IMG/VR virus record: IMGVR_UViG_3300027365_000521
Span: 1-7,623 of that record
Reading direction: 5' to 3' (one strand)
Length of the DNA: 7,623 nucleotides
Source: a virus
In this document: in pieces, positions 5,718 to 5,817 of the stretch
Layout of the letters: the number at the start of each line of letters is the position of its first letter
Position numbering within the stretch: position 1 is the stretch's first letter
Notes under the pieces: model-generated
The model's database searches: none
Seen by the model: the letters and a program-made list of their open reading frames with translations, nothing else
Told to the model about the DNA's origin: nothing
Translations under genes and position numbers: made by a program

Positions 5718-5729
5718 CGTTATGTAACG
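5718..5729. promoter_or_regulatory. Operator-like palindrome copy 1 (CGTTATGTAACG, 11/12)
   Basis: A one-mismatch copy of CGTTACGTAACG, 58 bp upstream of copy 2. Confidence 0.5.
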
Positions 5730-5775
5730 CTATCTATCGTGCGAGCCAGCGCGATTGAAACATTCAATGGATTTC

Positions 5776-5787
5776 CGTTACGTAACG
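5776..5787. promoter_or_regulatory. Operator-like palindrome copy 2 (CGTTACGTAACG, perfect)
   Basis: A perfect 12-bp palindrome ending 1 bp before the -35 hexamer TTGCAT (5789-5794). Confidence 0.55.
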
Positions 5788-5788
5788 A

Positions 5789-5817
5789 TTGCATATTTAT
5801 CGTTACGTAACTATAAT
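5789..5817 (+). promoter_or_regulatory. Near-consensus sigma70-type promoter for the plus-strand three-gene module
   Basis: TTGCAT (5789-5794), a 17-nt spacer, then a perfect TATAAT (5812-5817). This lies about 33 nt upstream of the ATG at 5851. Confidence 0.6.
5801..5812. promoter_or_regulatory. Operator-like palindrome copy 3 (CGTTACGTAACT, 11/12)
   Basis: It lies in the promoter spacer and runs into the first base of the -10 TATAAT. Its start is 25 bp from the start of copy 2. Confidence 0.55.

Follow-up and report, generated by a model that had tools for sequence, protein, structure and literature searches.

Three copies of a 12-bp palindrome cluster around one promoter in a small Pseudomonas-type filamentous phage, which raises the question of which protein reads them and how transcription responds. 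The window, i.e. the whole stretch of 7,623 nt analysed here (IMG/VR record IMGVR_UViG_3300027365_000521), carries these sites, hereafter operators O1, O2 and O3, at promoter P1, upstream of three plus-strand genes (Table 1). A preliminary description of the sequence had named two candidate binders, a ribbon-helix-helix (RHH)-like protein encoded further upstream (5152-5361, phrog_5642) and the basic 172-amino-acid (aa) protein encoded by the last gene of the operon itself. Comparison with related phages strongly favours the 172-aa protein, which combines an AT-hook-like motif, a basic helix and a predicted coiled coil, and P1 is probably under negative autoregulation by this protein through O1-O3.

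Three operators at the promoter P1

A motif scan of the window confirmed the three 12-mers of the preliminary description, with one, zero and one mismatch to the palindrome in O1, O2 and O3, respectively. When up to two mismatches are allowed, five copies are present against 0.20 expected, and none of 200 shuffled sequences reached five or more; the two additional copies, with two mismatches each, start at 6629 and 6755. The described geometry also agrees with the sequence, as O2 ends one base before the -35 hexamer and O3 fills the spacer and touches the TATAAT. From start to start, O1 and O2 are separated by 58 bp, O2 and O3 by 25 bp, and O1 and O3 by 83 bp, the last distance corresponding to about 8 helical turns and being close to in phase.

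While the -10 hexamer and the 17-bp spacer are optimal, the -35 hexamer is not near-consensus, so the promoter had been rated too highly in this respect: TTGCAT matches TTGACA at only three of six positions, and relatives mostly keep only T.GC.T at the same spacing. For the same reason P1 was not listed by a consensus promoter and terminator scan, TTGCAT falling below the scan threshold.

To evaluate the conservation of the sites, about 190 related sequences were compared, with 87 loci used for gene content and 59 distinct promoter regions for the operators. The relatives are IMG/VR inovirus contigs of ~7-8 kb and genomes of Pseudomonas, Aquipseudomonas and Halopseudomonas; individual ones are given by their L or P numbers. 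O1, O2 and O3 are all identical in L001 and L002, and an operator is fused to the TATAAT, which is invariant, in the 59 distinct promoter regions. The best-conserved block in this set reads ATTTAT-(C/G)GTWACGTWAC-TATAATTA. O3 is the sole operator position present in every relative examined. An equivalent of O2, 25-26 bp from O3, occurs in relatives of the A(E/D)R class defined below and in some of the other class, and a third site further upstream, as had been described for O1, is found in most relatives, sometimes as split half-sites.

O2 and O3 can also pair with each other, forming a perfect 13-bp stem with a 9-nt loop (single-stranded DNA (ssDNA) fold -12.7 kcal/mol, z -5.2), as if the palindromes acted as a DNA structure, e.g. 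a hairpin or cruciform of an origin or a single-strand promoter, and not as protein operators. This is hardly credible. The stem arises simply from the presence of one palindrome in two copies, and neither L011, with a non-palindromic variant (z 0.0), nor L009, which has no O2 (z -1.3), can form it, yet both keep the sites and the -10 hexamer. A separate inverted repeat, TACTCCAT-N11-ATGGAGTA, at 5818-5844 extends over both the predicted start and the GGAG of ORF1 (RNA fold -12.6 kcal/mol, z -4.5), and a similar repeat is present in phage 42-1. With a start near 5824, most of its 5' arm would be outside the mRNA.

P1 as the promoter of the 172-aa gene

The operator-TATAAT block is always located upstream of a homologue of the 172-aa gene in the 59 distinct relatives. 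In most of them the distance from the -10 hexamer to the ATG of the homologue is ~38 nt, which identifies P1 as this gene's own promoter; in the others one or two unrelated small open reading frames (ORFs) lie in between. Conversely, a scan of IMG/VR for GTWACGTWACTATAAT gave 112 matches, 57 with an RGRP...YRER module downstream. The remaining matches fall on truncated contigs, on four contigs with a homologue missed by the motif pattern, and, with other flanks, on large contigs, where they appear to be chance hits. Where the sequence has a CG, GG or TG flank and lies on a contig of ~7 kb, the module follows downstream, bar the truncated contigs and the four pattern misses. Comparison thus shows that the sites are linked exclusively to the 172-aa protein family.

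In the window, the two intervening genes bear traces of their arrival. The start of ORF1 copies the ATGATC start context of the regulator gene (direct repeat 5840-5856/6479-6495), and a 24-nt remnant of regulator codons 12-19 (6117-6140, a repeat of 6524-6547) precedes ORF2; in L003 this remnant is fused in frame to ORF2. These repeats of the regulator's 5' end are scars of cargo insertion between promoter and regulator. Together with the spacing in the homologues, they indicate that P1 originally served as promoter for the 172-aa gene, with the two small genes being variable cargo. Homologues of ORF1 were found in only L001, L002 and, weakly, L058 among the 87 loci, and also outside inoviruses. 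Pfam, NCBIfam and PADLOC gave no match for ORF1, ORF2 or the product of the convergent phrog_13909 gene. The idea that ORF1 represents the C-terminal domain of the regulator as a separate copy was dropped (BLASTP E 5). Between ORF2 and the ribosome-binding site of the regulator gene, a perfect 9-bp stem, ATCCCGCGC-cacat-GCGCGGGAT, is located at 6452-6476; it is also present in L001 and is not followed by a T tract.

The proposed control of a plus-strand operon therefore holds in part: a regulated unit exists, insulated by a terminator at 5560-5602, but the two small ORFs are cargo and not conserved partners. The terminator, whose stem shows compensatory changes in L009, was missed by the consensus scan and recognised by sequence reading and folding. 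It ends transcription of the upstream small gene and of a conserved non-coding region, isolating P1.

Operator class follows the reading helix

The operators of the family fall into classes that track the basic helix of the 172-aa homologue. An A(E/D)R helix (usually S/T-N-A-E-R-Q-R), as in the window, is accompanied by the operator (C/T)CGTTACGT(A/T)AC, with CGTTACGTWAC in 14 distinct promoters. An AEK or AQK helix (usually T-P/A-A-E-K-Q-R) goes with GGTAACGTTAC, in 45 distinct promoters. The helix S/T-D-A-E-R-A-R-R-Y-R-A-N, found in L060 and in phages 42-1 and WX_Y, is paired with CGTGAC-GC-GTCACG, which also abuts the TATAAT. In the L064 group, with the helix SNAERQRLYRQR, the half-site is the CGTTAC of the window with a 1-bp spacer, and L080 and L066 have the operator GTAACGCGTWAC. 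Operator class thus follows helix residues 34 and 37. The half-sites are spaced by 0, 1 or 2 bp or split by 8-14 bp, and this variability suggests that the reading heads are flexibly tethered.

A host transcription factor could in principle recognise the TWACGTWA core, given its simple central ACGT palindrome and hosts that seem to be related bacteria of the Pseudomonas group. We regard this as very unlikely, since three or more operator classes shift together with residues of the phage protein while the phage backbones are otherwise nearly identical, and since the motif with its TATAAT occurs essentially only beside the 172-aa gene family.

The window was also compared with L009, whose operators are of the GGTAACGTTAC type. 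Identity is 98% in the replication gene rep and 94% in the phrog_5642 gene, but it drops to 59% in the operator region and 74% over codons 1-52 of the regulator gene, and returns to 95% over codons 53-94. These mosaic boundaries indicate that operators and reading helix have been exchanged as one cassette, a joint change that linkage alone would not easily explain.

The same comparison bears on the RHH-like protein as the repressor that binds the palindromes. As a small upstream protein encoded divergently from rep, it occupies the usual slot of filamentous-phage repressors, but it varies independently of the operators. In L008 and L009 a 94%-identical copy and a 98%-identical rep accompany GGTAACGTTAC operators, in L002 an unrelated XRE-type helix-turn-helix (HTH) gene fills the slot although all three palindromes are the same, and many loci with these operators are devoid of any homologue. 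It also has candidate operators of its own, the TGCATGCATGCA repeats at 5045-5133. We therefore consider a role of this protein at P1 highly improbable. The phrog_13909 protein was tried as well and does not track operator class.

Hence, of the two candidates of the preliminary description, the 172-aa protein of the same operon is strongly favoured as the binder of the operators. It is by comparison of sequences that both properties expected of a cognate protein, being encoded in the regulated unit and having a specificity that matches the operator, are found in it. If residues 34 and 37 set the specificity, changing N34/R37 to P34/K37 would shift the preference from CGTTACGTAACG to GGTAACGTTACC. 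The natural variants form a table of helix residues against operator sequences, i.e. a compact specificity code that is possibly engineerable.

The 172-aa regulator protein

The conserved part of the family is the N-terminal 50 residues. In a first alignment of 20 members, RGRP, A31, A35, Q38, R42, R44 and K46 were invariant; the wider family keeps most of these residues, with 42-1, WX_Y and L060 differing at Q38 and R44. The invariant RGRP sequence has the GRP core and the basic flanks of an AT-hook, and 10 of 26 members give a weak score with the Pfam AT_hook profile (best E 0.01). A/T tracts lie beside the sites, with ATTTAT 5' of O3 and T-rich flanks at O1 and O2.

An AlphaFold2 model, calculated from a 65-sequence alignment, has a disordered tail with RGRP, a helix of residues 34-51, a break at 52-59, helices 60-90 and 97-117, which are predicted to form a coiled coil, and a small alpha/beta C-terminal domain. 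Sequence-profile searches of the PDB with the protein returned coiled coils only, and Pfam, NCBIfam and PADLOC only coiled-coil noise; in the Pfam searches, which also covered 65 family members, neither an HTH nor an RHH domain nor any Pfam family was found for the protein. A search of 1.84 billion representatives with the 60-residue N-terminus yielded only 178 clusters (50% identity), and in nearly all cases the segment begins at position 1 of a small protein. Both the regulator family and the operator code that varies with it appear to be undescribed.

Across the family, at least three unrelated C-terminal domains occur on the same N-terminal module. At its 3' end the regulator gene overlaps the phrog_13909 gene by 18 nt (6991-7008) with no terminator between them, so that convergent transcription could interfere.

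Operator copies inside the regulator gene

The two additional motif copies in the window are located inside the regulator gene, exactly at the mosaic junctions that flank its variable coiled-coil cassette. This central segment is a swappable cassette bounded by intragenic motif copies, as seen in P0006, P0055 and L005-L009. Some regulator proteins have two cassettes and three motif copies.

The intragenic copies match the operator class of the gene in which they reside. In 25 distinct A(E/D)R-class genes (11.7 kb), CGTTACGT occurs 25 times against 0.36 expected and GTAACGTTAC not once, while 53 AEK/AQK-class genes (25.5 kb) contain GTAACGTTAC 26 times against 0.02 expected. The two motifs are read in different frames, CGTTACGT within QRNEK and GTAACGTTAC as G/S-N-V-T. 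QRN is encoded as CAA CGT AAC in 26 of 27 cases, a share for which background codon frequencies of 0.40, 0.17 and 0.70 predict about 5%. In L005-L009, the change of an Asn to a Tyr codon shifts the intragenic site towards the phage's own operator type. The intragenic copies reflect a constraint at the DNA level. Embedded operators restrict the coding sequence of such tiny genomes, with the same DNA motif kept in two frames.

Probable autoregulation of P1

The arrangement suggests the following mode of action. P1 would be a sigma-70-type promoter driving an operon whose conserved member is its last gene. The product of this gene may act as a dimeric DNA-binder, made up of RGRP, the 18-residue basic helix, a flexible linker, the coiled coil and the small C-terminal domain. 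Its basic helix would read the 6-bp half-site CGTTAC and RGRP would contact the conserved A/T tract ATTTAT beside each site. Occupancy of O3, in the spacer and touching the -10 hexamer, would exclude RNA polymerase and lead to negative autoregulation, and O2 and O1 may contribute through cooperative binding or looping. At a low protein level, O2 might in addition activate P1 weakly, and the two class-matched intragenic copies may serve as internal auxiliary operators. Binding, the sign of the regulation, looping and the transcription start are what we infer from this arrangement, while the conservation of the sites and their joint change with the helix come from the comparison itself.

The sign could be the opposite. 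The 172-aa protein might bind the same sites but mainly activate P1 from O2 in a class II-like manner, occupying O3 only at high concentration, similar to the dual switch of lambda CI. A poor -35 hexamer, in the window and even more so in the relatives, combined with a perfect -10 hexamer is typical of activator-dependent promoters, and O2, the perfect palindrome, abuts the -35. However, many relatives of the AEK/AQK class do not have the -42 site and carry only those at ~-80 and -17.5, and the universal site is the one in the spacer and at the -10 hexamer, normally a repressing position. We thus consider predominant activation unlikely, though it deserves some weight.

Several observations speak against negative autoregulation by the 172-aa protein as outlined. 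The 58- and 25-bp spacings of O1-O2 and O2-O3 are not whole helical turns, and the weakness of the -35 hexamer leaves room for the need of an activator. As the operators adjoin the N-terminal codons, their joint change with the helix is perhaps partly due to linkage, which only the sharp mosaic boundaries oppose. The confidence of the structural model is modest (predicted local distance difference test, pLDDT, 66.7). Neither its fold nor the protein sequence matched any solved DNA-binding domain, a Foldseek search of the model against the PDB giving no match at E up to 0.001. We still regard repression of P1 by the protein of its own operon as the probable reading.

Genome organization and further elements

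The first 127 bases of the window are repeated exactly at its end (1-127 = 7497-7623), and it therefore represents a complete circular genome of a filamentous phage (inovirus) with a unit length of 7,496 nt. The core genes are on the minus strand and comprise a G2P-type replication gene, a Pf3-type ssDNA-binding protein, coat and adsorption genes, and Zot/pI. The Zot/pI gene (Walker A GKLGSGKS) spans the circular junction, so the apparent 94-aa ORF at 7312-7596 is its C-terminus; at 65-814 the plus strand has a long shadow ORF. On the plus strand, the phrog_5642 gene is followed by the conserved non-coding stretch with its terminator and then by the operator/promoter region. The isolated P. 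aeruginosa phages 42-1 and WX_Y, distant members of the same group, belong to recently described small prophages without an integrase (PMC10675462).

Table 1. Coordinates of features in the 7,623-nt window
Feature	Position	Strand	Description
Operator O1	5718-5729		CGTTATGTAACG, 11/12 match; centre near -100.5 if start near 5824; T-rich 5' flank CATTTT
Operator O2	5776-5787		CGTTACGTAACG, perfect palindrome; centre near -42.5; one base upstream of -35
Operator O3	5801-5812		CGTTACGTAACT, 1 mismatch; centre near -17.5; occupies spacer, shares T5812 with -10
-35 hexamer TTGCAT	5789-5794	plus	3/6 vs TTGACA, TTG kept
Spacer, 17 nt	5795-5811	plus
-10 hexamer TATAAT	5812-5817	plus	perfect; start predicted near 5824
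Intrinsic terminator, stem + U6	5560-5602	plus	RNA fold -27.5 kcal/mol, z -4.4, then TTTTTT
ORF1, 86 aa	5851-6111	plus	no family assignment
ORF2, 85 aa	6170-6427	plus
Regulator gene, 172 aa	6490-7008	plus	phrog_10506; last gene of operon
RGRP, AT-hook-like	6556-6567		in disordered N-terminus
Basic helix	6589-6642		residues 34-51
Intragenic operator-like copy 1	6629-6644		CGCAACGTAACGAAAA; perfect right half-site; encodes QRNEK at basic-helix end
Intragenic operator-like copy 2	6755-6770		exact 16-nt repeat of copy 1; end of variable coiled-coil cassette; encodes QRNEK
G2P-type replication gene (rep)	3900-5054	minus
Pf3-type ssDNA-binding protein	2980-3273	minus
Long conserved hairpin	7216-7302	minus	dif-like arms; candidate XerCD attP in single-stranded form

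The long hairpin folds as ssDNA with -31.4 kcal/mol (z -9.4) and has a 3-nt bulge between its arms. In 14 relatives the hairpin has 32 base pairs, of which 13 show compensatory changes, and the strand is fixed by G·T pairs that are conserved; in certain relatives the arms have a completely different sequence but still pair. A resemblance to what we take to be the XerC/XerD arms of Pseudomonas dif is seen in the outer arms TCGCATAA and in the inner arms TTACGTTTAAT and TTACATTAAAT. With dif assumed in this form, two inverted dif-like sites pair around an unpaired centre, and the element looks like a folded attP of the CTXphi type. In one chromosomal relative, L086 from a Halopseudomonas chromosome, a dif-like site matching at 25 of 28 positions lies 1.2 kb from the homologue. 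Related prophages have no integrase, occupy intergenic sites and are flanked by terminal repeats of 11-12 nt (PMC10675462).

The two arms of this hairpin contain motif-like copies (7277-7292 and 7226-7240), and the phrog_13909 gene has its start codon (7221) in the 3' arm. A second regulated promoter for this gene was rejected, as the copies at 7226-7292 lie in the covarying hairpin and relatives with other operator classes or swapped arms drop the motif. The hairpin is possibly a further binding site of the regulator but probably a separate element.

Palindrome repeats, TTGCATGCATGCATGCAAATCACAT and TGCATGCA, are located at 5045-5133, between rep and the divergent phrog_5642 gene, and probably serve the phrog_5642 protein as a further, distinct set of operators; this region differs in L002, where the XRE-HTH gene replaces that protein. 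The conserved GC-rich non-coding stretch at 5362-5602 (~240 nt), common to L002 and L009, contains the hairpin GGGGGTGTAACAGCACCCCC and ends in the terminator. An Rfam scan of the whole window with E up to 1 gave no matches, this stretch included, which could be a small RNA or an element of the replication origin.

Comparison with known systems

In phage immunity modules of the lambda/434 type, a repressor acts on multipartite operators, and filamentous phages have repressors such as RstR of CTXphi and Pf4r of Pf4. As in these modules, the regulator gene of the window lies beside several copies of its own operator that overlap the promoter, and operator and recognition helix are swapped as a cassette between near-identical backbones, giving specificity types. 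In contrast to them, the 172-aa protein, whose role in immunity is putative, has no HTH, RHH or Pfam family, and its gene is not divergent from rep, the corresponding slot being held by phrog_5642 or, in L002 and phage 42-1, by an XRE-HTH gene.

Internal or auxiliary operators are known from lac, where O2 lies within lacZ, and from gal, with OI within galE. The window likewise has extra operators inside coding sequence downstream of the promoter and one auxiliary operator upstream. Its internal copies differ in being located in the regulator's own gene, half-degenerate, and at recombination junctions flanking the coiled-coil cassette. KfrA of IncP-1 plasmids is another autoregulated protein with an N-terminal DNA-binding part and a long coiled-coil tail, encoded in a small operon with an operator overlapping its own promoter. 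The 172-aa protein is much shorter, its N-terminal motif differs, and KfrA_N (PF11740) gave no Pfam match in 65 family members. The sole functional name in the annotated collections searched is "Replication regulatory protein RepB" (PF10723), which the homologue of Pseudomonas phage 42-1 (OR621020) carries. This label was not reproduced, as neither the 42-1 protein nor that of the window nor any of 65 relatives has a Pfam match to PF10723, and motif scans found no copies near the rep promoter or gene.

In DNA reading, the helix resembles the basic region of Pap1 and the Yap proteins, a subfamily of the eukaryotic basic leucine zipper (bZIP) factors. Pap1 binds TTACGTAA through RxxxNxxAQxxFR, of which the NxxAQxxFR residues contact the TTAC half-site and Arg82 the G flanking TTAC (PMC7261193); its sequence, KRKAQNRAAQRAFRKRKE, was confirmed against PDB 1GD2. 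The core of the window operators, GTTAC|GTAAC (GTTACGTAAC in O2 and O3), fits the Pap1 site, and the phage helix N34-A-E-R37-Q38-R-L-Y41-R42-E-R44 has N, Q, Y/F and R in register, with the class-changing positions 34 and 37 aligned with the base-contacting N86 and A89 of Pap1. Yap8 contacts A/T flanks with its N-terminal tail, which is the role that we propose for RGRP. However, the likeness has clear limits. The window's QxxxNxxRQxxYR does not fit the Pap1 signature, R82 and A89 not being kept, and the Asn is not invariant in the family (N, P, A or D). In the predicted structure, the proline-containing break at 52-59 separates the helix from the coiled coil. The linker varies in length and sequence, and the range of half-site spacings would not be allowed by a rigid bZIP fork. 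Searches for bZIP_1, bZIP_2 and Maf gave no Pfam match, PDB profile searches no bZIP chains, and BLASTP against Pap1 only a non-significant alignment in a different segment (E 0.15). The resemblance therefore points to a possible way of working and not to family membership.

A tentative picture, which we put forward as a minority view, is that the phage proteins are loosened bZIP-like readers. An AT-hook and an 18-residue basic helix with a Pap1-like N..Q..YR pattern would be flexibly tethered to a swappable coiled coil, the half-site (CGTTAC, GGTAAC or CGTGAC) being set by two or three residues and the spacing being free. Embedded operator copies would double as recombination junctions for exchanging specificity and dimerisation cassettes, by convergence with, or distant kinship to, eukaryotic bZIP proteins. 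Overall, the layout, with operators bracketing a promoter and bound by the operon's own product, is classical, whereas the binder appears to be new, and the regulator family offers an entry point to regulation in the small Pseudomonas filamentous phages without an integrase that were described recently.

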